This document shows positions 1,300-16,246 of a stretch of 16,246 bases of DNA, piece after piece; position 1 is the stretch's first letter; each line of letters starts with the position of its first letter. The stretch is from Naegleria gruberi (taxonomy: Eukaryota): the NCBI GenBank assembly GCA_000004985.1, contig GG738971.1; one strand, written 5' to 3'. Both the position numbers and the translations under genes were made by a program. The notes beneath the pieces are model-generated. The model was not told the DNA's origin. It made no database searches and saw nothing but the letters and a program-made list of their open reading frames with translations.

Positions 1300-4200
1300 N
1301 NNNNNNNNNNNNNNNNNNNNNNNNNNNNNNNNNNNNNNNNNNNNNNNNNNNNNNNNNNNNNNNNNNNNNNNNNNNNNNNNNNNNNNNNNNNNNNNNNNNN
1401 NNNNNNNNNNNNNNNNNNNNNNNNNNNNNNNNNNNNNNNNNNNNNNNNNNNNNNNNNNNNNNNNNNNNNNNNNNNNNNNNNNNNNNNNNNNNNNNNNNNN
1501 NNNNNNNNNNNNNNNNNNNNNNNNNNNNNNNNNNNNNNNNNNNNNNNNNNNNNNNNNNNNNNNNNNNNNNNNNNNNNNNNNNNNNNNNNNNNNNNNNNNN
1601 NNNNNNNNNNNNNNNNNNNNNNNNNNNNNNNNNNNNNNNNNNNNNNNNNNNNNNNNNNNNNNNNNNNNNNNNNNNNNNNNNNNNNNNNNNNNNNNNNNNN
1701 NNNNNNNNNNNNNNNNNNNNNNNNNNNNNNNNNNNNNNNNNNNNNNNNNNNNNNNNNNNNNNNNNNNNNNNNNNNNNNNNNNNNNNNNNNNNNNNNNNNN
1801 NNNNNNNNNNNNNNNNNNNNNNNNNNNNNNNNNNNNNNNNNNNNNNNNNNNNNNNNNNNNNNNNNNNNNNNNNNNNNNNNNNNNNNNNNNNNNNNNNNNN
1901 NNNNNNNNNNNNNNNNNNNNNNNNNNNNNNNNNNNNNNNNNNNNNNNNNNNNNNNNNNNNNNNNNNNNNNNNNNNNNNNNNNNNNNNNNNNNNNNNNNNN
2001 NNNNNNNNNNNNNNNNNNNNNNNNNNNNNNNNNNNNNNNNNNNNNNNNNNNNNNNNNNNNNNNNNNNNNNNNNNNNNNNNNNNNNNNNNNNNNNNNNNNN
2101 NNNNNNNNNNNNNNNNNNNNNNNNNNNNNNNNNNNNNNNNNNNNNNNNNNNNNNNNNNNNNNNNNNNNNNNNNNNNNNNNNNNNNNNNNNNNNNNNNNNN
2201 NNNNNNNNNNNNNNNNNNNNNNNNNNNNNNNNNNNNNNNNNNNNNNNNNNNNNNNNNNNNNNNNNNNNNNNNNNNNNNNNNNNNNNNNNNNNNNNNNNNN
2301 NNNNNNNNNNNNNNNNNNNNNNNNNNNNNNNNNNNNNNNNNNNNNNNNNNNNNNNNNNNNNNNNNNNNNNNNNNNNNNNNNNNNNNNNNNNNNNNNNNNN
2401 NNNNNNNNNNNNNNNNNNNNNNNNNNNNNNNNNNNNNNNNNNNNNNNNNNNNNNNNNNNNNNNNNNNNNNNNNNNNNNNNNNNNNNNNNNNNNNNNNNNN
2501 NNNNNNNNNNNNNNNNNNNNNNNNNNNNNNNNNNNNNNNNNNNNNNNNNNNNNNNNNNNNNNNNNNNNNNNNNNNNNNNNNNNNNNNNNNNNNNNNNNNN
2601 NNNNNNNNNNNNNNNNNNNNNNNNNNNNNNNNNNNNNNNNNNNNNNNNNNNNNNNNNNNNNNNNNNNNNNNNNNNNNNNNNNNNNNNNNNNNNNNNNNNN
2701 NNNNNNNNNNNNNNNNNNNNNNNNNNNNNNNNNNNNNNNNNNNNNNNNNNNNNNNNNNNNNNNNNNNNNNNNNNNNNNNNNNNNNNNNNNNNNNNNNNNN
2801 NNNNNNNNNNNNNNNNNNNNNNNNNNNNNNNNNNNNNNNNNNNNNNNNNNNNNNNNNNNNNNNNNNNNNNNNNNNNNNNNNNNNNNNNNNNNNNNNNNNN
2901 NNNNNNNNNNNNNNNNNNNNNNNNNNNNNNNNNNNNNNNNNNNNNNNNNNNNNNNNNNNNNNNNNNNNNNNNNNNNNNNNNNNNNNNNNNNNNNNNNNNN
3001 NNNNNNNNNNNNNNNNNNNNNNNNNNNNNNNNNNNNNNNNNNNNNNNNNNNNNNNNNNNNNNNNNNNNNNNNNNNNNNNNNNNNNNNNNNNNNNNNNNNN
3101 NNNNNNNNNNNNNNNNNNNNNNNNNNNNNNNNNNNNNNNNNNNNNNNNNNNNNNNNNNNNNNNNNNNNNNNNNNNNNNNNNNNNNNNNNNNNNNNNNNNN
3201 NNNNNNNNNNNNNNNNNNNNNNNNNNNNNNNNNNNNNNNNNNNNNNNNNNNNNNNNNNNNNNNNNNNNNNNNNNNNNNNNNNNNNNNNNNNNNNNNNNNN
3301 NNNNNNNNNNNNNNNNNNNNNNNNNNNNNNNNNNNNNNNNNNNNNNNNNNNNNNNNNNNNNNNNNNNNNNNNNNNNNNNNNNNNNNNNNNNNNNNNNNNN
3401 NNNNNNNNNNNNNNNNNNNNNNNNNNNNNNNNNNNNNNNNNNNNNNNNNNNNNNNNNNNNNNNNNNNNNNNNNNNNNNNNNNNNNNNNNNNNNNNNNNNN
3501 NNNNNNNNNNNNNNNNNNNNNNNNNNNNNNNNNNNNNNNNNNNNNNNNNNNNNNNNNNNNNNNNNNNNNNNNNNNNNNNNNNNNNNNNNNNNNNNNNNNN
3601 NNNNNNNNNNNNNNNNNNNNNNNNNNNNNNNNNNNNNNNNNNNNNNNNNNNNNNNNNNNNNNNNNNNNNNNNNNNNNNNNNNNNNNNNNNNNNNNNNNNN
3701 NNNNNNNNNNNNNNNNNNNNNNNNNNNNNNNNNNNNNNNNNNNNNNNNNNNNNNNNNNNNNNNNNNNNNNNNNNNNNNNNNNNNNNNNNNNNNNNNNNNN
3801 NNNNNNNNNNNNNNNNNNNNNNNNNNNNNNNNNNNNNNNNNNNNNNNNNNNNNNNNNNNNNNNNNNNNNNNNNNNNNNNNNNNNNNNNNNNNNNNNNNNN
3901 NNNNNNNNNNNNNNNNNNNNNNNNNNNNNNNNNNNNNNNNNNNNNNNNNNNNNNNNNNNNNNNNNNNNNNNNNNNNNNNNNNNNNNNNNNNNNNNNNNNN
4001 NNNNNNNNNNNNNNNNNNNNNNNNNNNNNNNNNNNNNNNNNNNNNNNNNNNNNNNNNNNNNNNNNNNNNNNNNNNNNNNNNNNNNNNNNNNNNNNNNNNN
4101 NNNNNNNNNNNNNNNNNNNNNNNNNNNNNNNNNNNNNNNNNNNNNNNNNNNNNNNNNNNNNNNNNNNNNNNNNNNNNNNNNNNNNNNNNNNNNNNNNNNN

Positions 4201-6460
4201 NNNNNNNNNNNNNNNNNNNNNNNNNNNNNNNNNNNNNNNNNNNNNNNNNNNNNNNNNNNNNNNNNNNNNNNNNNNNNNNNNNNNNNNNNNNNNNNNNNNN
4301 NNNNNNNNNNNNNNNNNNNNNNNNNNNNNNNNNNNNNNNNNNNNNNNNNNNNNNNNNNNNNNNNNNNNNNNNNNNNNNNNNNNNNNNNNNNNNNNNNNNN
4401 NNNNNNNNNNNNNNNNNNNNNNNNNNNNNNNNNNNNNNNNNNNNNNNNNNNNNNNNNNNNNNNNNNNNNNNNNNNNNNNNNNNNNNNNNNNNNNNNNNNN
4501 NNNNNNNNNNNNNNNNNNNNNNNNNNNNNNNNNNNNNNNNNNNNNNNNNNNNNNNNNNNNNNNNNNNNNNNNNNNNNNNNNNNNNNNNNNNNNNNNNNNN
4601 NNNNNNNNNNNNNNNNNNNNNNNNNNNNNNNNNNNNNNNNNNNNNNNNNNNNNNNNNNNNNNNNNNNNNNNNNNNNNNNNNNNNNNNNNNNNNNNNNNNN
4701 NNNNNNNNNNNNNNNNNNNNNNNNNNNNNNNNNNNNNNNNNNNNNNNNNNNNNNNNNNNNNNNNNNNNNNNNNNNNNNNNNNNNNNNNNNNNNNNNNNNN
4801 NNNNNNNNNNNNNNNNNNNNNNNNNNNNNNNNNNNNNNNNNNNNNNNNNNNNNNNNNNNNNNNNNNNNNNNNNNNNNNNNNNNNNNNNNNNNNNNNNNNN
4901 NNNNNNNNNNNNNNNNNNNNNNNNNNNNNNNNNNNNNNNNNNNNNNNNNNNNNNNNNNNNNNNNNNNNNNNNNNNNNNNNNNNNNNNNNNNNNNNNNNNN
5001 NNNNNNNNNNNNNNNNNNNNNNNNNNNNNNNNNNNNNNNNNNNNNNNNNNNNNNNNNNNNNNNNNNNNNNNNNNNNNNNNNNNNNNNNNNNNNNNNNNNN
5101 NNNNNNNNNNNNNNNNNNNNNNNNNNNNNNNNNNNNNNNNNNNNNNNNNNNNNNNNNNNNNNNNNNNNNNNNNNNNNNNNNNNNNNNNNNNNNNNNNNNN
5201 NNNNNNNNNNNNNNNNNNNNNNNNNNNNNNNNNNNNNNNNNNNNNNNNNNNNNNNNNNNNNNNNNNNNNNNNNNNNNNNNNNNNNNNNNNNNNNNNNNNN
5301 NNNNNNNNNNNNNNNNNNNNNNNNNNNNNNNNNNNNNNNNNNNNNNNNNNNNNNNNNNNNNNNNNNNNNNNNNNNNNNNNNNNNNNNNNNNNNNNNNNNN
5401 NNNNNNNNNNNNNNNNNNNNNNNNNNNNNNNNNNNNNNNNNNNNNNNNNNNNNNNNNNNNNNNNNNNNNNNNNNNNNNNNNNNNNNNNNNNNNNNNNNNN
5501 NNNNNNNNNNNNNNNNNNNNNNNNNNNNNNNNNNNNNNNNNNNNNNNNNNNNNNNNNNNNNNNNNNNNNNNNNNNNNNNNNNNNNNNNNNNNNNNNNNNN
5601 NNNNNNNNNNNNNNNNNNNNNNNNNNNNNNNNNNNNNNNNNNNNNNNNNNNNNNNNNNNNNNNNNNNNNNNNNNNNNNNNNNNNNNNNNNNNNNNNNNNN
5701 NNNNNNNNNNNNNNNNNNNNNNNNNNNNNNNNNNNNNNNNNNNNNNNNNNNNNNNNNNNNNNNNNNNNNNNNNNNNNNNNNNNNNNNNNNNNNNNNNNNN
5801 NNNNNNNNNNNNNNNNNNNNNNNNNNNNNNNNNNNNNNNNNNNNNNNNNNNNNNNNNNNNNNNNNNNNNNNNNNNNNNNNNNNNNNNNNNNNNNNNNNNN
5901 NNNNNNNNNNNNNNNNNNNNNNNNNNNNNNNNNNNNNNNNNNNNNNNNNNNNNNNNNNNNNNNNNNNNNNNNNNNNNNNNNNNNNNNNNNNNNNNNNNNN
6001 NNNNNNNNNNNNNNNNNNNNNNNNNNNNNNNNNNNNNNNNNNNNNNNNNNNNNNNNNNNNNNNNNNNNNNNNNNNNNNNNNNNNNNNNNNNNNNNNNNNN
6101 NNNNNNNNNNNNNNNNNNNNNNNNNNNNNNNNNNNNNNNNNNNNNNNNNNNNNNNNNNNNNNNNNNNNNNNNNNNNNNNNNNNNNNNNNNNNNNNNNNNN
6201 NNNNNNNNNNNNNNNNNNNNNNNNNNNNNNNNNNNNNNNNNNNNNNNNNNNNNNNNNNNNNNNNNNNNNNNNNNNNNNNNNNNNNNNNNNNNNNNNNNNN
6301 NNNNNNNNNNNNNNNNNNNNNNNNNNNNNNNNNNNNNNNNNNNNNNNNNNNNNNNNNNNNNNNNNNNNNNNNNNNNNNNNNNNNNNNNNNNNNNNNNNNN
6401 NNNNNNNNNNNNNNNNNNNNNNNNNNNNNNNNNNNNNNNNNNNNNNNNNNNNNNNNNNNN
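1300..6460. other. N-masked block or assembly gap of 5161 nt. Nothing can be inferred here. The giant X-filled ORFs in the track are artefacts.
   Basis: A contiguous run of n characters. Confidence 1.
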
Positions 6461-8452
6461 ATTGTTCAAGTTATAATAATGTTTATTGGTCTGTTAGTTT
6501 ATTGCAAATGAGGGAAGATTCTGAAATTCATGGAAATATTTTGGCCACAGAAGTGACAGCTTCGAATTCAAAAATTTATGGAACTCTGATTATACCAGAT
6601 TCGGCAACGATGGTAACTATATTCGAAACTACTCAGTTCATGAATTTTACTAATTGGGATCCTTATTCACCATTTGTTGATTCGAAATGTATTTCTTCTC
6701 AATCAGTAGTTTCGTCTAATGTTTCTTCCAATTCGACTGTGGTTACAAACAGTTCAGTTTCAGTCAATCAAACTATTATTAATTCCAACTCGTCAATGAT
6801 TAAGAACAATACTGTTTACAATAGTACAGTATTAAATAATTCCACATTGAATAATTATTCATCAATAGTTAACACTACTCAAGTTTCTAATAATATTACA
6901 GTTGGTAATTCAACAACTTTATCAAATTCTACAAACGTATTGAATAATTCCTCAATGAGTGGTAATTCGACCTTTTCCAATTCTACTAATTATGGAAATG
7001 GCTCACTTTCGAATACAACACAAGTGGTTTCTAATAATGTTACAGTTGGTAATTCAACAACTTTATCAAATTCTACAAAAGTAATGAATAATTCCTCAAT
7101 GAATGGTAATTCAACATTTTCCAATTCTACTAATTATGGAAATGGCTCACTTTCGAATACAACACAGGTAGTTTCTAATAATAATACAGTTGGTAATTCT
7201 TCAAATTTATCAAATACTACGATTGTACTGAATAATTCCTCAATGGAAAGTAATTCTTCACAAACAATTTCCAATTCCACTGTTGCCAATACTACAAATA
7301 TTCACGGAAATGACTCACTGTCGAATACAACGCAAAATGTTGCTAATAATAATACACTAGGAAATTCCACACAATTACTGAATATTTCAATGAACAGCAA
7401 TAGTACAAGCAATTATTCCAGTATTACCAACTCTACTAATTATGGAAATGAATCATTTGTGAATTCAACAAATAATTCAGTGAACAGCACTACTAATTCT
7501 ACTTTTATGGGAAATAGTTCAAATATTTCACAACAAGTGAATACAACCACAAATTCATCAATTGGAGTTGTTGATAACGAAACGACTATTCTTATGAATG
7601 AAACAAATGTTTCGAATAATAGCATTGTTGAAACTAATCAAACTCTGAATAATTCACAAATTGTTAACGAAACATCAACAGAATCCAATAATAATGGAAC
7701 AATTCAAAACAACTCTTCCCAAACTATTATTTCCAATAATTCATCCATTGTTAACGAAACTTCCAATACTTCTAATACTACAGAACTAATTTCTAATAAC
7801 ACAATAAGTGATTCAAATAACACATTTATCAATCAGTCAACTGTGGAACATCAAAATTCAACACTTAATCAAACTCTAATTAACAATCAAACTACTTTTG
7901 GAAATAGTTCAGTAATTGAAGTTCAAAACCAGGTCAATCAAACATCAAATATCTCTAACAGCACAAACAACACTTTAATTATTAATTCAACAATTATTTC
8001 TAACAATACAATTTCCAATTATAGTAATTCAGTATTACCAAGTAATGTCACAAATAATTCGACATTATCAATCAATAATACAATTCTAAATAATCAAAGC
8101 ACTGTAAATTCAACAACATCTAACCTGAATAATGAAACATTCAATAATCAGAATTCCAGTTTAAATAATTGTGACAGACATGTCAATTGCTCAAATCATG
8201 GCGATTGTAATTCAGAAGGACAATGCATATGTTCTTCAAATTATGAAGAAGGTTTCTGGTCTGGAACTAAGTGTGAATTTTGTGCGATTAACTTTTATGG
8301 AAAATTATGTAATACTAAAATTGTTGGTCCAGCTTTGATTTCACCAGATTTTACAGGCGTTACATTTATATTACATTCTGCACAGATGAATGATTCAATT
8401 CCTTGTGAAAAGATTATCAATCCACTTGATTTATCTATTTTTGGAAGTAAGC
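6461..8452 (+). CDS. Internal fragment, open at both ends into masked sequence, of a secreted or surface glycoprotein. It is Asn/Ser/Thr-rich and hyper-sequon-dense, with tandem repeats and a C-terminal EGF-like module.
   Basis: A 664-codon open frame without stops from the mask edge at 6461 to the mask edge at 8452. The track's start at 6502 is a TTG; the first ATG is at 6508 and there is no signal peptide, so the real 5' end is probably upstream in the masked region. There are dozens of N-x-S/T sequons (NST, NSS, NTT, NIS, NVT, NQT, NET and others), repeated about 48-aa units, and an 8-Cys module CDRHVNCSNHGDCNSEGQCICSSNYEEGFWSGTKCEFCAINFYGKLC. Confidence 0.75.
6883..7338 (+). repeat. Coding tandem repeat of three nearly identical 144-bp (48-aa) units starting at 6883, 7027 and 7171. 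More degenerate copies lie upstream (about 6790) and downstream (7339 to about 7510).
   Basis: Units 1 and 2 differ at about 8 of 144 nt. Unit 3 is about 80% identical. The encoded unit is VSNN[IVN]TVGNSTTLSNSTNVLNNSSM[SN]GNSTFSNSTNYGNGSLSNTTQV. Confidence 0.85.
8170..8310 (+). other. EGF-like module with eight cysteines (laminin/tenascin-type spacing) at the C-terminal end of the visible glycoprotein fragment.
   Basis: The cysteine pattern C-x5-C-x5-C-x5-C-x-C-x13-C-x2-C-x8-C, with the conserved G and aromatic positions (HGDC, GQCIC, GFWSG, YG..C). Confidence 0.7.
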
Positions 8453-11400
8453 NNNNNNNNNNNNNNNNNNNNNNNNNNNNNNNNNNNNNNNNNNNNNNNN
8501 NNNNNNNNNNNNNNNNNNNNNNNNNNNNNNNNNNNNNNNNNNNNNNNNNNNNNNNNNNNNNNNNNNNNNNNNNNNNNNNNNNNNNNNNNNNNNNNNNNNN
8601 NNNNNNNNNNNNNNNNNNNNNNNNNNNNNNNNNNNNNNNNNNNNNNNNNNNNNNNNNNNNNNNNNNNNNNNNNNNNNNNNNNNNNNNNNNNNNNNNNNNN
8701 NNNNNNNNNNNNNNNNNNNNNNNNNNNNNNNNNNNNNNNNNNNNNNNNNNNNNNNNNNNNNNNNNNNNNNNNNNNNNNNNNNNNNNNNNNNNNNNNNNNN
8801 NNNNNNNNNNNNNNNNNNNNNNNNNNNNNNNNNNNNNNNNNNNNNNNNNNNNNNNNNNNNNNNNNNNNNNNNNNNNNNNNNNNNNNNNNNNNNNNNNNNN
8901 NNNNNNNNNNNNNNNNNNNNNNNNNNNNNNNNNNNNNNNNNNNNNNNNNNNNNNNNNNNNNNNNNNNNNNNNNNNNNNNNNNNNNNNNNNNNNNNNNNNN
9001 NNNNNNNNNNNNNNNNNNNNNNNNNNNNNNNNNNNNNNNNNNNNNNNNNNNNNNNNNNNNNNNNNNNNNNNNNNNNNNNNNNNNNNNNNNNNNNNNNNNN
9101 NNNNNNNNNNNNNNNNNNNNNNNNNNNNNNNNNNNNNNNNNNNNNNNNNNNNNNNNNNNNNNNNNNNNNNNNNNNNNNNNNNNNNNNNNNNNNNNNNNNN
9201 NNNNNNNNNNNNNNNNNNNNNNNNNNNNNNNNNNNNNNNNNNNNNNNNNNNNNNNNNNNNNNNNNNNNNNNNNNNNNNNNNNNNNNNNNNNNNNNNNNNN
9301 NNNNNNNNNNNNNNNNNNNNNNNNNNNNNNNNNNNNNNNNNNNNNNNNNNNNNNNNNNNNNNNNNNNNNNNNNNNNNNNNNNNNNNNNNNNNNNNNNNNN
9401 NNNNNNNNNNNNNNNNNNNNNNNNNNNNNNNNNNNNNNNNNNNNNNNNNNNNNNNNNNNNNNNNNNNNNNNNNNNNNNNNNNNNNNNNNNNNNNNNNNNN
9501 NNNNNNNNNNNNNNNNNNNNNNNNNNNNNNNNNNNNNNNNNNNNNNNNNNNNNNNNNNNNNNNNNNNNNNNNNNNNNNNNNNNNNNNNNNNNNNNNNNNN
9601 NNNNNNNNNNNNNNNNNNNNNNNNNNNNNNNNNNNNNNNNNNNNNNNNNNNNNNNNNNNNNNNNNNNNNNNNNNNNNNNNNNNNNNNNNNNNNNNNNNNN
9701 NNNNNNNNNNNNNNNNNNNNNNNNNNNNNNNNNNNNNNNNNNNNNNNNNNNNNNNNNNNNNNNNNNNNNNNNNNNNNNNNNNNNNNNNNNNNNNNNNNNN
9801 NNNNNNNNNNNNNNNNNNNNNNNNNNNNNNNNNNNNNNNNNNNNNNNNNNNNNNNNNNNNNNNNNNNNNNNNNNNNNNNNNNNNNNNNNNNNNNNNNNNN
9901 NNNNNNNNNNNNNNNNNNNNNNNNNNNNNNNNNNNNNNNNNNNNNNNNNNNNNNNNNNNNNNNNNNNNNNNNNNNNNNNNNNNNNNNNNNNNNNNNNNNN
10001 NNNNNNNNNNNNNNNNNNNNNNNNNNNNNNNNNNNNNNNNNNNNNNNNNNNNNNNNNNNNNNNNNNNNNNNNNNNNNNNNNNNNNNNNNNNNNNNNNNNN
10101 NNNNNNNNNNNNNNNNNNNNNNNNNNNNNNNNNNNNNNNNNNNNNNNNNNNNNNNNNNNNNNNNNNNNNNNNNNNNNNNNNNNNNNNNNNNNNNNNNNNN
10201 NNNNNNNNNNNNNNNNNNNNNNNNNNNNNNNNNNNNNNNNNNNNNNNNNNNNNNNNNNNNNNNNNNNNNNNNNNNNNNNNNNNNNNNNNNNNNNNNNNNN
10301 NNNNNNNNNNNNNNNNNNNNNNNNNNNNNNNNNNNNNNNNNNNNNNNNNNNNNNNNNNNNNNNNNNNNNNNNNNNNNNNNNNNNNNNNNNNNNNNNNNNN
10401 NNNNNNNNNNNNNNNNNNNNNNNNNNNNNNNNNNNNNNNNNNNNNNNNNNNNNNNNNNNNNNNNNNNNNNNNNNNNNNNNNNNNNNNNNNNNNNNNNNNN
10501 NNNNNNNNNNNNNNNNNNNNNNNNNNNNNNNNNNNNNNNNNNNNNNNNNNNNNNNNNNNNNNNNNNNNNNNNNNNNNNNNNNNNNNNNNNNNNNNNNNNN
10601 NNNNNNNNNNNNNNNNNNNNNNNNNNNNNNNNNNNNNNNNNNNNNNNNNNNNNNNNNNNNNNNNNNNNNNNNNNNNNNNNNNNNNNNNNNNNNNNNNNNN
10701 NNNNNNNNNNNNNNNNNNNNNNNNNNNNNNNNNNNNNNNNNNNNNNNNNNNNNNNNNNNNNNNNNNNNNNNNNNNNNNNNNNNNNNNNNNNNNNNNNNNN
10801 NNNNNNNNNNNNNNNNNNNNNNNNNNNNNNNNNNNNNNNNNNNNNNNNNNNNNNNNNNNNNNNNNNNNNNNNNNNNNNNNNNNNNNNNNNNNNNNNNNNN
10901 NNNNNNNNNNNNNNNNNNNNNNNNNNNNNNNNNNNNNNNNNNNNNNNNNNNNNNNNNNNNNNNNNNNNNNNNNNNNNNNNNNNNNNNNNNNNNNNNNNNN
11001 NNNNNNNNNNNNNNNNNNNNNNNNNNNNNNNNNNNNNNNNNNNNNNNNNNNNNNNNNNNNNNNNNNNNNNNNNNNNNNNNNNNNNNNNNNNNNNNNNNNN
11101 NNNNNNNNNNNNNNNNNNNNNNNNNNNNNNNNNNNNNNNNNNNNNNNNNNNNNNNNNNNNNNNNNNNNNNNNNNNNNNNNNNNNNNNNNNNNNNNNNNNN
11201 NNNNNNNNNNNNNNNNNNNNNNNNNNNNNNNNNNNNNNNNNNNNNNNNNNNNNNNNNNNNNNNNNNNNNNNNNNNNNNNNNNNNNNNNNNNNNNNNNNNN
11301 NNNNNNNNNNNNNNNNNNNNNNNNNNNNNNNNNNNNNNNNNNNNNNNNNNNNNNNNNNNNNNNNNNNNNNNNNNNNNNNNNNNNNNNNNNNNNNNNNNNN

Positions 11401-11876
11401 NNNNNNNNNNNNNNNNNNNNNNNNNNNNNNNNNNNNNNNNNNNNNNNNNNNNNNNNNNNNNNNNNNNNNNNNNNNNNNNNNNNNNNNNNNNNNNNNNNNN
11501 NNNNNNNNNNNNNNNNNNNNNNNNNNNNNNNNNNNNNNNNNNNNNNNNNNNNNNNNNNNNNNNNNNNNNNNNNNNNNNNNNNNNNNNNNNNNNNNNNNNN
11601 NNNNNNNNNNNNNNNNNNNNNNNNNNNNNNNNNNNNNNNNNNNNNNNNNNNNNNNNNNNNNNNNNNNNNNNNNNNNNNNNNNNNNNNNNNNNNNNNNNNN
11701 NNNNNNNNNNNNNNNNNNNNNNNNNNNNNNNNNNNNNNNNNNNNNNNNNNNNNNNNNNNNNNNNNNNNNNNNNNNNNNNNNNNNNNNNNNNNNNNNNNNN
11801 NNNNNNNNNNNNNNNNNNNNNNNNNNNNNNNNNNNNNNNNNNNNNNNNNNNNNNNNNNNNNNNNNNNNNNNNNNNN
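8453..11876. other. N-masked block or assembly gap of 3424 nt. It hides the 3' part of the glycoprotein gene and the 3' two-thirds of the NirK gene.
   Basis: A contiguous run of n characters. Confidence 1.
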
Positions 11877-12623
11877 ATACGAATGTTCCATTAATTTTGG
11901 ATCATCATCTGATGGTTCACAATAGAATTCACTTTGCATGACATAGAATTCCTTATCTACTTTTGGTAATCCCTCTTCTGGCTCAACTAACATTAATCCA
12001 TACATGCCATTACTTATGTGTGAAGGAACTGGACCTGCAGCACAGTGATAGATAAATAAACCTGAAGTTAATAATTTGAAAAATCCTGTTTTTTCTTCAT
12101 CTTTTTCAGCCAATAACATTTCTGCACCTCCTCCTGGTCCTGTCACACAGTGAAAATCAATATTGTGAGCCATACCGGTTTCGTCCAAGTTTAGGTAATT
12201 GACTTGCATGACATCTCCAACTCTTGCTCTGATAAATGGTCCAGGAACTGTTCCATTAAATGTCCAATATGGATACTTGTACTGTTTGCTGATTGGTTTC
12301 ACTTCAATTGTGGTATCTAGATTAACAACTAATTGAACTGGATAATCACGGTCAATTGGTGGAGGAATTCCAGGAGCTTTTGTTAAAATTGCTTCAACAA
12401 CTGGCAACTCCAAATTTAATTCAGGAGCTTTCTTGAATTTCTTCATCATATTTTCAGGAAACAAACTATGTTTCTTTTGTGTTTCTTGTGCTTCAAGTAA
12501 ACTATCACATTGGTATTTGTAGTATTGATAAACACCTGTTCCAACAGCACAGGTTAGACCTAGGGATAATGCAATGTCAAAAGTCTTTGGTTTGACAGTT
12601 CTTAGTCTGTGGAACAGTTTCAT
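11877..12623 (-). CDS. nirK: Copper-containing nitrite reductase (NirK, NO-forming). This is the 5' portion only: the N-terminal targeting/anchor extension plus cupredoxin domain I. Domain II lies in masked sequence.
   Basis: The ATG is at 12623-12621 on the minus strand. The translation contains the diagnostic NirK motifs WTFNGTVPGP, HNIDFH (T1Cu His and T2Cu His), YHCAAGPVPSHISNGMYG (His-Cys, His at +9 and Met at +5, which are the T2/T1 ligands) and KEFYVMQSEFY. These align with bacterial NirK (TFNGSVPGP / HNIDFHAATGALGGGA / [24 protein letters not shown] / KIYYVGEQDFY). The first roughly 90 aa (MKLFHRLRTVKPK + hydrophobic FDIALSLGLTCAVGTGVY...) have no bacterial counterpart. Confidence 0.9.
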
Positions 12624-12717
12624 TAGTGTTGTATTGTTATTTTTTAATTGAAATGTTGAATAAGACTTTTTTTATGATTCTTTGAATTTCCATTTGTCCT
12701 CAAACATAATCCCATTA

Positions 12718-12785
12718 CTGTGGTTACGCAATGAAGTGCAAGCAATTCTACAATGAAATGCAAGCAATTATTTTTTGAACTGCAA
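12718..12785. repeat. Left terminal inverted repeat (68 bp). It contains TGCAAGCAATT subrepeats at 12737-12747 and 12759-12769, and a degenerate third copy at 12781-12791.
   Basis: Its reverse complement equals 15859-15926 at 68 of 68 positions, checked base by base. Confidence 0.9.
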
Positions 12786-12959
12786 CGAATAATTTAATGA
12801 ATTGAAAGTTTCTTGAACCACAATTCTTAAAATAGATCAAAGAGAAGTCACACTGTAAGATCAAGCTGTAGTTCTGCTTGTTTCGAATATTGATAATGAA
12901 TTTGTTTATTATATAAGATATTTTGTATTGTTATTAAGATGATTGATCACTCTTCATGT

Positions 12960-15722
12960 TCATTGAATTTTCTTTCCGAAAATTGAATCCTCCCATGACT
13001 CATTAAATAATTCATCTAATTCTTCGTCATAATCGCCAAGCTCAATTTTAGAGCTCTTCTTGGGTTCAGATTGAAAACCTTCTGATTCCGAAAGTGGGCT
13101 TTGTGGTTCAAATTCTACTACATGTAAATGTTGCAATCTAGCAACAAGTATAGCTCTGTAATTTGAAATAGAAAATGGTTTGGTCATAATATCGACGGCA
13201 TCAGATAGTGAAAATCCTGCTGAAAGAAAATCCATTAGTAATACACAATAATCACCACAATGATTTCCATCCACTTGAATTTTTTTTTGTAATGTTTTTC
13301 GAACAGTCTTTGGTTTTACAATAAATGATGGCAACATTTCAAATAATTCACTAGTCTCTGATTCTATCACTGAAAAATCCTTAGCGAAAGAATCAAAAAG
13401 AAACCAATCAGTGGATTGACAATCATAGATTAGTAAGTACCAGTGTAATGATCTTGCCACAGGAAAAATTATAAATCCTTTTGATGTAAATTTCATACTC
13501 TTTGGTAAGTTTGTTTCTATGAATTTTTTGGATTGGTTAGTAACTCTTTGAGAGAAATCAGACGGTATGTATTGTAAATATTGTGAGCTGATTTTGGAAA
13601 AACAAATTCCAAATATATCAAAAGTATTTCCAGGTAAGAATACAGTGTCATCTTTGATAGTCTCCAATGCCTCAGTAGATAAAGTGATTGAACAAGCAAT
13701 TGTTTCTGTTGAAAGAACGTACAATTGTAGATTGGCAGCATTTTGTTGGATGTTATAGTTAAATTCTGTTTTGTTTTGTATGTGAAGTATTATTTTAGAT
13801 ATTTGTTCTACCTGTTTTTGGTCAAAATTTTCTTTCATGGAATCACTATCAATCCAAGGATTGTTTACATCATCTAAGATGGGATCTTGATCTAATTTCT
13901 CATCTGTCTCTACCTTAACTGATGGTGTAGGTAGTTCTACATAGAATTGACCAATACACATAGGATTAAATTCTCTGATATATAAATCATACAAATCATT
14001 ATTCATTTTCAGTGAAGCTCTGACATACTTCAAGTATTCCTCTTCTGAATCATAATTCCAAATATCCATTAAACATTTTCTAAAACTGTTTACAATCACA
14101 TCTGGATTCATGTTAGAAATAATCTGCTCAAATGCTGCATTTCTTGATTTTCTATCAGAATTAGAATTATTCTTTTTCCAATCAGCTAATTCTCTTTTTG
14201 CATATCTGAAACACATATTATCCAATGGTGATTGATGGTGCCCACCTACAGGAAGTAAAATGTTAATTCTATTATGTTGTTTCAAAATCTTTTGAACTGA
14301 TTTACACTTATGATGAGAGAGATTATCCCATAATAAAATGTCTCCTTCTTTTGAATTAGGAATATAAACTTTTTCAACCCATTGCTCAATATGTTCAATA
14401 TGAACACCAGCAATTTTTTCCTCAACAGTTACCTTATTACCATTAATAGTTGATTTCTTTCCTGGCACTGACTCAACAATAGACACTGGTAATACACCTC
14501 CTTCTGCCGTTACAGCAACTAAAAAAGTATCCTTAATATCATCAGCCAATTGTAAAACAACTGCATCATCGTCCTTGATTGGAGTATTTGTTCTTTCCGT
14601 CGCCTTAGTATTTGTTCCAGTTTCATCAAAAACCACAATTTTACTTCTATCAATGGATTTTAAATTTCTAAACATTATTGCTGCATAGAAGCAATAATAA
14701 TAGTAGGTTCTATATAATTGCTCATAAGCTGTTTCAATTCTTTCTCTCTTGGTAATTGTTGTTTTGATCTTCCTTTTATAAAGAAACTTCTTGGAAAATT
14801 TGGAAATATAATCTACTGAAGGTGTTTTCTTTAATCCTGCAACTTCCTTCATTATTTCTCCAAGTCTTATATTACTAACTTGTTTTTTCTCACTCCGTTC
14901 CTTACGAGTAATATCAATAACCTGTAAAATTTGGTCTTTCAATAATAATGGAGGTGGGTGACCACGTTCAACCTTTAATGTTAGTTCATTCCTCTTGCAT
15001 GCCGATAAATATCTGCTAAATTGTGAAGGTGAGATATTATTTTGTTTAGCAAATTCCTGTTGTGATCCACGGTCGGGTGTTGAATATTGTTCTTTATACT
15101 TCTCAACAAGTTTAATTTGTTCTTCTCTTGTTTTTTGAACATAACCAACTTTTCTTTTGTTTTTAAACCCTATCAATACTATTTTATCATCAGGATTTTC
15201 CTTTTTTTCTGTCTCCTCCAGGTTTACCAGTTTTGCTTTCTTTGCTTGACTTTCATTGTATGTTTCTTGATTCCGTTCAACAATTAATAGGGCTTTTTTT
15301 TTGATGTTGTCTTCGAATGACTCATCTCTTTCATCCGTCTCTTCCTCAACAGAAGAACAAATTCTAGTTACCAATTTTGCTACCAGAGCATCTTTTCTAA
15401 GATTACCTCCTGTCTCTCCAAATTCACTCTTCAAAAACTCCTTCAAAAACTTGACATTTTTCATTGTCAATTGATCACGGATTGCCTCTTCCACATTCTC
15501 AAACTTTCGTTTTGTTCCTTTTTTTAGCTTCTTTGGTTTTTCTTCTTTTTTCTTGCCTGGTGTTTTTTCATCTTTCTTTTTACTGGGTGTGTTATCTGGT
15601 TGATCTTGTGTACAGGTCCATGAAGGAACTTGAGATACTGAAGGTAGCAAATCTATTAAATTGCTATAGCTGGAGAAGCTTTGTGGTGAAGTGTCATAGC
15701 TACTCGATTGCTTGTTTGACAT
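12960..15722 (-). CDS. Transposase fused to a Ulp1-like protease. From the N terminus: a basic NLS-like region, CENP-B/pogo-type HTH domains, a DDE_1 catalytic core, and a C-terminal Ulp1/C48 cysteine peptidase domain. It is 920 aa long and ends with a TGA stop.
   Basis: Residues 47-73 are KKKDEKTPGKKKEEKPKKLKKGTKRK. HTH-like segments lie around aa 195-300. The DDE_1 motifs are VVFDETG (D366), ILLWDNLSHH (D466) and QSPLDNMCFRYAK (D501), which gives D-D-35-D spacing and the pogo DNxxH / QPLD signatures. The Ulp1 motifs are SLHWYLLIYD (H760), WFLFDS (D777) and KIQVDGNHCGDYC (Q816, C822), with His-Asp spacing of 17 and Gln-Cys spacing of 6 as in Ulp1. Confidence 0.9.
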   Translation of the reverse strand: MSNKQSSSYDTSPQSFSSYSNLIDLLPSVSQVPSWTCTQDQPDNTPSKKKDEKTPGKKKEEKPKKLKKGTKRKFENVEEAIRDQLTMKNVKFLKEFLKSEFGETGGNLRKDALVAKLVTRICSSVEEETDERDESFEDNIKKKALLIVERNQETYNESQAKKAKLVNLEETEKKENPDDKIVLIGFKNKRKVGYVQKTREEQIKLVEKYKEQYSTPDRGSQQEFAKQNNISPSQFSRYLSACKRNELTLKVERGHPPPLLLKDQILQVIDITRKERSEKKQVSNIRLGEIMKEVAGLKKTPSVDYISKFSKKFLYKRKIKTTITKRERIETAYEQLYRTYYYYCFYAAIMFRNLKSIDRSKIVVFDETGTNTKATERTNTPIKDDDAVVLQLADDIKDTFLVAVTAEGGVLPVSIVESVPGKKSTINGNKVTVEEKIAGVHIEHIEQWVEKVYIPNSKEGDILLWDNLSHHKCKSVQKILKQHNRINILLPVGGHHQSPLDNMCFRYAKRELADWKKNNSNSDRKSRNAAFEQIISNMNPDVIVNSFRKCLMDIWNYDSEEEYLKYVRASLKMNNDLYDLYIREFNPMCIGQFYVELPTPSVKVETDEKLDQDPILDDVNNPWIDSDSMKENFDQKQVEQISKIILHIQNKTEFNYNIQQNAANLQLYVLSTETIACSITLSTEALETIKDDTVFLPGNTFDIFGICFSKISSQYLQYIPSDFSQRVTNQSKKFIETNLPKSMKFTSKGFIIFPVARSLHWYLLIYDCQSTDWFLFDSFAKDFSVIESETSELFEMLPSFIVKPKTVRKTLQKKIQVDGNHCGDYCVLLMDFLSAGFSLSDAVDIMTKPFSISNYRAILVARLQHLHVVEFEPQSPLSESEGFQSEPKKSSKIELGDYDEELDELFNESWEDSIFGKKIQ
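13113..13625 (-). other. Ulp1 / SUMO-protease-like cysteine peptidase domain (C48 family) at the transposase C-terminus.
   Basis: The catalytic His-Asp-(Gln)-Cys arrangement HWYLL...FLFDS...QVDGNHCGDYC has canonical spacing and is followed by an acidic tail. Confidence 0.75.
14088..14690 (-). other. DDE_1 (pogo/Tigger/Fot1-type) catalytic domain of the transposase.
   Basis: The D366 / D466 / D501 triad lies within the characteristic motifs DETG, LLxDNxxxH and LPxxxxxxxSPLD. Confidence 0.8.
14823..15140 (-). other. Helix-turn-helix DNA-binding region of the transposase, of the CENP-B/pogo N-terminal type (two HTH units).
   Basis: Segments QQEFAKQNNISPSQFSRYLSACKR and HPPPLLLKDQILQVIDITRKERSEKKQVSNIRLGEIMKEV resemble psq/HTH_Tnp_Tc5-like helices. 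This is assigned by pattern, not by alignment. Confidence 0.5.
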
Positions 15723-15797
15723 TTTATAAATTTATTGCTTCTTCTGCTGATTGGAAGTTTTGATGTGTGTTTTGCAAGTTTCTTGATCAAAGTGGAA

Positions 15798-15804
15798 ATT
15801 TATA
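15798..15804 (-). promoter_or_regulatory. Candidate TATA box (TATAAAT on the minus strand) about 76-82 nt upstream of the transposase ATG, inside the element.
   Basis: The motif appears on visual inspection in the 136-bp region between the right TIR and the ATG. This region is AT-rich, so specificity is low. Confidence 0.2.
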
Positions 15805-15858
15805 TTTAGACTTTCTTGCAGTTCGTCAGCAAGTAATTGTACTACATTGTAGAATTGC

Positions 15859-15926
15859 TTGCAGTTCAAAAAATAATTGCTTGCATTTCATTGTAGAATT
15901 GCTTGCACTTCATTGCGTAACCACAG
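15859..15926. repeat. Right terminal inverted repeat (68 bp). It contains AATTGCTTGCA subrepeats at 15853-15863, 15875-15885 and 15897-15907, which is 22-bp phasing.
   Basis: It is a perfect reverse complement of 12718-12785. The internal 19-bp CATTGTAGAATTGCTTGCA occurs at 15845-15863 and 15889-15907. Confidence 0.9.
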
Positions 15927-16246
15927 TAGTACAGAGAACGGCTGTTTTTTAAAATATATAAAAAAGGTTCTGAGCGATGGATTATGATTTATTGGATTAT
16001 GAATTGATATTTAGAGTATTTGGATAATTGGATGTTGCTCATTGTTAAGTTCAGTTTAATTTTTGATTAATTTGAATTCAAAAAATTGGCCAAGTCTCCA
16101 GGGAATCGATCTCGTAGGATTCTGGTGTTGTTGGCTTGTTGTTTATTCAATTCAATGACAAACTGTATGGGGTTCACATAAAAAATTCCCAGAGATGGGT
16201 TGAGCTTTGCTTAATTGCTTGTGCATGTAATGAATAGTTACTGAAA

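Follow-up and report, generated by a model that had tools for sequence, protein, structure and literature searches.

Multi-site transposon ends control the number of transposase protomers that assemble, and influence the order in which the ends pair and the mobilization of non-autonomous derivatives. Mos1 is ~1.3 kb long, with inverted repeats (IRs) of ~28 bp, one site per end and a protein of 345 amino acids (aa). The inverted repeat/direct repeat (IR/DR) ends of Sleeping Beauty, Tc3 and Minos hold two sites ~165 bp apart, at the outer and inner edges of an IR of ~200–250 bp, with a DD34E catalytic triad, and the asymmetric ends of Tn7 (TnsB) and Mu (MuA) carry several ~22-bp direct sites, partly contiguous (Tn7 right end; Mu R1–R2). 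In Lemi1/Emigrant of Arabidopsis (Loot et al. 2006, PMC1636448), one end (TIR2) combines the site in the terminal inverted repeat (TIR) with two contiguous, same-orientation subterminal repeats of the inner half of the TIR; Lemi1 proteins protect the TIR of Emigrant along with this pair of subterminal motifs in a single 56-bp block, with cooperative binding, and the same work cites Osmar, Sleeping Beauty and pogo for their subterminal sites. Here we analyse a 16,246-bp scaffold stretch from Naegleria gruberi (GenBank contig GG738971.1, assembly GCA_000004985.1; the whole stretch is called the window), in which positions 12718–15926 are probably an intact 3,209-bp cut-and-paste DNA transposon of the IS630/Tc1/mariner superfamily, with multi-site ends for its own transposase.

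The element is bounded by TIRs that are complementary at 68 of 68 positions (12718–12785 against 15859–15926; CTGTGGTTACGC...GAACTGCAA, closing CTGCAA), as a preliminary description of this DNA had stated, and the degenerate continuation that it reported further inside is also present, with 8 of the next 14 positions matching between the ends. Each tip reads CTGT, and TA lies directly outside both (12716–17 and 15927–28) in this single insertion (n = 1), for which the predicted pre-insertion empty site reads ...CCCATTAGTACAG... (also written ...AATCCCATTAGTACAGAG...). Counted from the tip, each end is in register, an 11-nt leader being followed by head-to-tail 22-bp units (CAATGAAnTGCAAGCAATTCTA). 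The longest invariant run within the unit is the 11-mer AATTGCTTGCA, which had been singled out as a phased subrepeat and which indeed occurs exactly three times at 22-bp spacing at the right end (15853, 15875 and 15897, + strand). Its reported mirroring at the left end holds for two exact copies (12737 and 12759, − strand), the third agreeing at only 8 of 11 positions (TGCAACGAATA against TGCAAGCAATT at the right end); a 19-mer, CATTGTAGAATTGCTTGCA, is repeated at the right as described (15845 and 15889) but stands only once at the left. Of the five units at the right end, the first three are good, the fourth is degenerate and the fifth is good but displaced by one base; the left end consists of two good units followed by two that are progressively degenerate. 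The individual sites, given here as the 12-bp core defined below with its offset from the tip, and the features that enclose them are as follows.

12716–12717, no strand: left copy of the TA target-site duplication, outside the TIR tip.
12718–12785, + strand: left TIR, perfect 68 bp, on the 3' side of the open reading frame (ORF), 68/68 complementary to 15859–15926.
12731–12742, + strand: left core site 1, ATGAAGTGCAAG, offset 14.
12753–12764, + strand: left core site 2, ATGAAATGCAAG, offset 36.
12775–12786, + strand: left core site 3, degenerate TTGAACTGCAAC (2 mismatches), offset 58; the third left 11-mer breaks here.
12797–12808, + strand: left core site 4, ATGAATTGAAAG (1 mismatch), offset 80, beyond the perfect TIR.
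15815–15826, − strand: right core site 5, ACGAACTGCAAG (1 mismatch), offset 101.
15836–15847, − strand: right unit 4, degenerate ATGTAGTACAAT, 7/12 identical to the fourth unit of the related element L001, offset 80.
15858–15869, − strand: right core site 3, TTGAACTGCAAG, offset 58.
15880–15891, − strand: right core site 2, ATGAAATGCAAG, offset 36.
15902–15913, − strand: right core site 1, ATGAAGTGCAAG, offset 14.
15859–15926, − strand: right TIR, perfect 68 bp, on the 5' side of the ORF, complementary to the left TIR.
15927–15928, no strand: right copy of the TA target-site duplication, outside the TIR tip.

With one mismatch allowed, the 11-mer matches the window 6 times against 0.32 expected (at least 6 in 0 of 200 shuffles), and five of the six matches fall within the TIRs. 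The sole off-target near-match (7404, one mismatch) sits inside an Asn/Ser/Thr-rich repetitive ORF.

A second, distantly related element ends in the same kind of array. P0003 and P0002, the two closest relatives of the window protein, share a single metagenome contig (ENA ERZ27315067; L001); the same locus, 99.9% identical, was also recovered from a second metagenome (L002, JGI 3300002220). The L001 copy (301–2665) is 5'-truncated, lacking the 5' TIR and any equivalent of the N-terminal 190 aa, and retains its 3' end. It carries a frameshift, a 2-nt AT insertion near 1096, whose removal restores a 733-aa ORF; the restored protein aligns with the window protein over 698 aa, taking in the DNA-binding, catalytic and C-terminal domains, at 38% identity. 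On the 3' side of its stop codon the core ATGAAnTGCAAG occurs four times on one strand with at most one mismatch (2553–2652; 0.32 expected, at least four in 0 of 200 shuffles), and beyond them the sequence continues ...GGGATTAACAG to a putative tip at 2665. Measured from the CTGT tip, the cores lie at 14, 37, 60, 83 (degenerate) and 102 in L001, against 14, 36, 58, 80 (degenerate) and 101 at the right end of the window element. Unit by unit, the 12-bp core is identical at 49 of 60 positions, compared with 16 of 50 in the next 10 bp, which is background level, and 6 of 13 in the leader. Comparison of the 125-nt ends finds 50 shared 10-mers (at most one mismatch) against 0.65 expected (0 of 5,000 shuffles), all of them on cores or their immediate flanks. 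Given this contrast between core and linker and the near-equal offsets, comparison of the two sequences indicates that the repeats are conserved while the remainder is randomized, and that the layout is conserved as well. The alignment places the constraint on the 12-bp core ATGAAnTGCAAG, which overlaps the 11-mer by 6 bp only (TGCAAG), and marks the CAATT half of the 11-mer as specific to the Naegleria copy. The expectation that the 11-mers would be conserved beyond their spacers in other copies is borne out, in the one related element with a recoverable end, for the part that falls in the core and not for CAATT.

The TIRs bracket one transposase gene, as in other members of the superfamily. 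Its 920-aa product is 100% identical to the database entry 'predicted protein [Naegleria gruberi]' and is divided as follows.

12960–15722, − strand: 920-aa ORF, no internal stops, DD34D transposase with a C-terminal Ulp1/C48-like domain.
14784–15128, − strand: predicted bipartite DNA-binding region, residues 199–313 (AlphaFold; confidence as predicted local distance difference test, pLDDT, mostly 70–95).
14043–14645, − strand: catalytic RNase-H-like DDD domain, residues ~360–560 (Pfam DDE_3, PDB profile, Foldseek).
13128–13490, − strand: Ulp1/C48-like cysteine-protease domain, residues ~745–865 (H760, D777, Q816, C822).

The catalytic triad is D366/D466/D501, and the 34 residues between the second and third aspartates make it DD34D. 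Pfam DDE_3 matches the ORF with E=5e-6, below the gathering score, and a profile of the closest relatives searched against the PDB returns Mos1 (E=0.0023) and also SETMAR and SB100X, with D466 and D501 aligned to the HDN and PSD motifs of Mos1. An AlphaFold model built on 48 sequences (mean pLDDT 68; >90 across the catalytic core) contains two three-helix bundles, at residues 199–243 and 262–313, followed by the RNase-H-like domain. Foldseek ranks full-length Mos1 first (E=4e-9), followed by SETMAR/Metnase (range of E 4e-9 to 5e-5), which makes Mos1 the best match by both sequence profile and fold; in the structure-based alignment the two proteins are 12–14% identical. On the strength of the profile match, the triad, the modelled fold and the Foldseek result, we assign the element to the IS630/Tc1/mariner superfamily.

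Upstream of the catalytic core, the two bundles are predicted to be helix-turn-helix (HTH) domains. No Pfam HTH model matches the 920-aa query itself; among the relatives, the HTH matches are to HTH_32/33/23/29 (IS630-type) and not to HTH_Tnp_Tc5 or psq. The top alignments to full-length Mos1 run to ~400 columns, longer than matches to the catalytic domain only, and may also cover the predicted DNA-binding region at 199–313, alignment coordinates not being returned. The preliminary description had proposed the N-terminal 300 aa as a binding construct, which would cut the predicted second HTH (residues 262–313), at the cost of its last helix (303–313). The N-terminal residues 1–190 (15722–15153, − strand) are Lys/Glu-rich and have no counterpart in L001. 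A by-eye likeness to a SAP motif at residues ~85–120 is not claimed here, Pfam giving no match even on the isolated segment; a clear SAP domain (E=2e-12) is present in one of the relatives that make up alignment A3.

Narrower placements were considered and not adopted. The protein shares DD34D with mariner, and has neither the mariner sequence signature nor the form of a compact ~1.3-kb element with ~30-bp IRs; because neither the query nor 48 relatives match Transposase_1, identity to Mos1 is 12–14%, the element is 3.2 kb (3,209 bp) and the protein is 920 aa, it is not mariner proper. Membership of pogo is not demonstrable, as the query has no DDE_1 match and the query and 47 relatives have no CENP-B/Tc5-type HTH match; DDE_1 is matched by 39 of 48 relatives, but DDE_3 is matched just as often. 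An IR/DR-type Tc1 element was set aside on account of the contiguous sites, the 68-bp IR and an aspartate as the third catalytic residue.

The repeats are most likely a multi-site array of transposase binding sites, and it is from their sequence and arrangement that we infer binding, cooperativity and stoichiometry. In each ~22-bp unit the 12-bp core ATGAAnTGCAAG would be joined to a linker of ~10 bp that varies, the units being set head to tail from position 14, and each core would dock the DNA-binding region (residues ~199–313) of the element's own transposase. The tip-proximal site would place a protomer for cleavage at the CTGT/TA junction, like the single Mos1 site, while two to four inner sites would load extra protomers side by side, raising their local concentration and favouring cooperative assembly of a paired-end complex, as seen biochemically for Lemi1/Emigrant (PMC1636448). 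The ~22-bp period is probably the footprint of one bipartite DNA-binding region, abutting its neighbours every two helical turns or so. The comparison speaks against strict phasing of the copies onto one face of the helix: the period is 22 bp in the Naegleria element and 23 bp in L001 (2.1–2.2 helical turns), and exact same-face phasing is therefore not conserved.

Several points weigh against such an array. Within the window, an invariant 11-bp run among three 22-bp units with 6 variable positions has P ~0.075, which is weakly significant, so selection on the 11-mer is not demonstrable from the window alone. The cross-element support comes from one related end in a fossil copy (L001 and L002 being a single locus), whose tip is uncertain by ~1 nt and has no TA directly beside it as placed; L003 and L004, two further family fragments, are internal, degraded and without ends. 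The right-end array also lies 93–190 bp upstream of the ATG at 15722, where a promoter role is possible. Neutral tandem duplication would leave only the tip-proximal site functional and make the rest a 22-bp slippage minisatellite with no role in transposition; it suits units that are strictly head-to-tail and 73–86% identical over all 22 bp, linkers included, a left end that tolerates degenerate third and fourth units, and a core-versus-linker contrast that is not significant within the element alone. We nevertheless consider it improbable, since L001 keeps the same number of units at the same positions despite 38% protein identity, its linkers having fallen to 32% identity and its cores standing at ~82%. 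Independent slippage is not expected to reproduce the 14/36/58/80/101 layout, and conservation of that layout while linkers are randomized is what disfavours a minisatellite.

The position of the right-end array, and the larger number of good copies on that promoter side than at the left, would also fit host-factor sites or promoter/enhancer elements of the transposase gene in place of transposase sites. This too seems unlikely to us, because the same array stands inverted at the ORF-distal left end and, in L001, past the stop codon at the 3' end, where it would be of no use to a promoter; in both elements, moreover, the array begins a fixed 14 bp from the cleavage tip. That the locus is not mobile at all, its ends being a chance or structural inverted repeat around an ordinary host gene, accords with the single visible copy, with a protein annotated merely as 'predicted protein' and with searches of protein databases that found no paralogue, but is scarcely credible for a perfect 68-bp inverted repeat flanked by TA and enclosing an ORF with a Mos1-like DDD fold, when another organism has a homologue terminating in the same motif array. 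An array of transposase sites at the ends of a mobile element is thus the reading we retain.

The C-terminal domain of the transposase resembles a cysteine protease. Pfam Peptidase_C48 scores 20.6 bits on the query against a gathering score of 20.7 (E=4e-4), Foldseek matches this region to the NEDD8 protease 2bkq (E=8e-3), and pLDDT here is only 60–68. The relatives P0004 and P0015 exceed the Peptidase_C48 cut-off, and the domain is conserved in L001 and P0004, both with Ser in place of Asp. Its H–D spacing of 17 and Q–C spacing of 6 match those of yeast Ulp1. More distant relatives carry a UCH domain in place of the C48-like one. Protease-bearing DNA transposons have been described, namely Ginger1 (Ulp1 or OTU), Ulp1-carrying Mutator-like elements, OTU Helitrons and an IS4-like element plus C19 in Trichomonas (PMC2836005); like the Naegleria element they have a SUMO/ubiquitin-type cysteine-protease domain C-terminal to, or beside, the transposase, but they belong to other superfamilies. 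Full-text literature searches, which do not cover Repbase, returned no report of a Tc1/mariner-superfamily transposase fused to a C48 domain. A Ulp1-like domain on a mariner-type transposase, with UCH in relatives, is more unusual than the end architecture and would, if true, extend the recurrent link of transposases with deubiquitinase/deSUMOylase domains to another superfamily.

Relatives are few. A scan of 1.84 billion representative proteins yielded 69 at E≤1e-3, and 39 of 48 scanned sequences match DDE_1 and 38 of 48 match DDE_3. Word-indexed protein searches with the full ORF and with P0002 each returned only the query itself, so paralogues at 50–90% identity are without representation there; the same kind of search with the DDE core gave no match, the source protein itself also being missed. 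A search for contigs encoding the window protein found no further contig. A protein-pattern scan of metagenome contigs, based on the alignment of the window and L001 proteins, gave 600 pattern matches, none confirmed, and when the DNA of metagenome contigs was scanned for two cores in phase, 90 stretches were listed (L008–L097), none of which encodes a relative by tblastn. These stretches were rejected as related ends, being mostly in-frame coding repeats of period 21 or 24, with a few unrelated tandem repeats at 22–23. No clear TIRs were found in L098 or L099; L100 encodes a C48 protein, and gene calling places no transposase in its vicinity; L101 is of insufficient length. Literature searches returned nothing specific on Naegleria Tc1/mariner/pogo elements.

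One more distant relative, on contig L007, has tandem units at its ends. Its protein P0011 (973 aa) is ~28% identical to the window protein over the DDE region and combines DDE_3/DDE_1 with a C-terminal UCH domain (PF00443). The contig opens and closes inside an inverted repeat (1–107 and 4677–4762) of 35-bp tandem units (TGCAGCAATCAA...TCTTCATT; unit core TCATTTGCwGCAATCAA), so tandem direct units within inverted ends recur in the clade, with a different period. Its ORFs run from 184 to 1659 (491 aa) and then from 1677 to 4598 (P0011). Another relative, P0019 on L099, has a DDE domain and a weak UCH match. Tandem repeats were also seen near two other ORFs: at L005 1–500, a 20-bp unit (ATGAATAATCAATGAAATAC) repeated in tandem more than 20 times, which may be a subterminal array or an unrelated satellite, lies upstream of a 365-aa DDE_1-like ORF (P0006), and at L098 914–959 two tandem 23-bp units (TCCmGAATGAATTTGGGrTTT) lie 120–170 bp upstream of the P0007 ORF, with a weaker third unit at 2747 and no inverted partner seen in the contig.

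Taken together, these features raise the possibility, which we put forward tentatively and hold to be rather doubtful, of a very rare, undescribed Tc1/mariner lineage of protease-fused transposases (C48 here and in L001; UCH/C19 in P0011 and P0019). Its ends, arrays of abutting units (22–23 bp; 35 bp in L007), would nucleate a filament-like assembly of more than four protomers per end, and through the protease, transposition could be tied to SUMO/ubiquitin signalling in the host.

The readable parts of the window have ~32% G+C; N-masked runs at 1300–6460 (5,161 bases) and 8453–11876 (3,424 bases) make up over half of it, and the long ORFs listed across these runs are artefacts. The element lies upstream of a multicopper-oxidase-domain gene (11877–12623, − strand; Pfam Cu-oxidase_3, E=7e-7), 95 bp from its start codon; the gene enters a masked stretch, and its protein, by eye, resembles a copper nitrite reductase that bears a targeting or transmembrane segment at its N terminus. 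Further off are a fragment of a C2-domain gene (805–1299, + strand; Pfam C2, E=4e-14), probably interrupted by a short intron near 1124–1170, and the very Asn/Ser/Thr-rich repetitive ORF (6502–8452, + strand), which closes with weak EGF-like Cys-rich motifs below Pfam cut-offs.

The Naegleria element offers a compact and apparently intact case of multi-site ends from a deep-branching eukaryotic group, the heteroloboseans, in which, to our knowledge, few DNA transposons have been characterized. Set beside known systems, it resembles Tn7 and Mu in its several ~22-bp direct sites on asymmetric ends, and is unrelated to their lineage beyond the DDE fold (the Foldseek match to TnsB is weak, E ~1e-4), and those elements have different target duplications and accessory proteins. 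With Mos1 (PDB 3hos, 4u7b and 5hoo) it shares DD34D, two HTH domains, here predicted, ahead of an RNase-H-like core, and a TA target; it differs from Mos1 in its 3.2-kb length, multi-site ends and 920-aa protein. Like IR/DR ends, its ends carry multiple sites in direct orientation within each inverted repeat, and the predicted bipartite HTH region is of the same fold class; unlike them, the sites abut, from offset 14 to ~112, the perfect TIR measures 68 bp and the transposase has a DD34D triad. Of the likeness to Sleeping Beauty IR/DR and pogo ends suggested in the preliminary description, the IR/DR geometry is thus absent and the pogo-like Lemi1/Emigrant ends (PMC1636448) come closer. As in Lemi1/Emigrant, a tip-proximal site is followed by adjacent same-orientation repeats, in L001 as well, and the two share superfamily, TA duplication and asymmetric ends. 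They part in that the Naegleria array has three to five ~22-bp units reaching ~112 bp from the tip, with another core sequence, and in that its transposase is not recognizably pogo and bears a C48-like domain, its binding here being predicted from sequence. The end architecture is therefore already known in kind and the gain is incremental: the element confirms the pattern of Lemi1/Emigrant, Sleeping Beauty, Osmar and pogo, and supplies a defined core of 12 bp and a layout of five positions conserved in L001.

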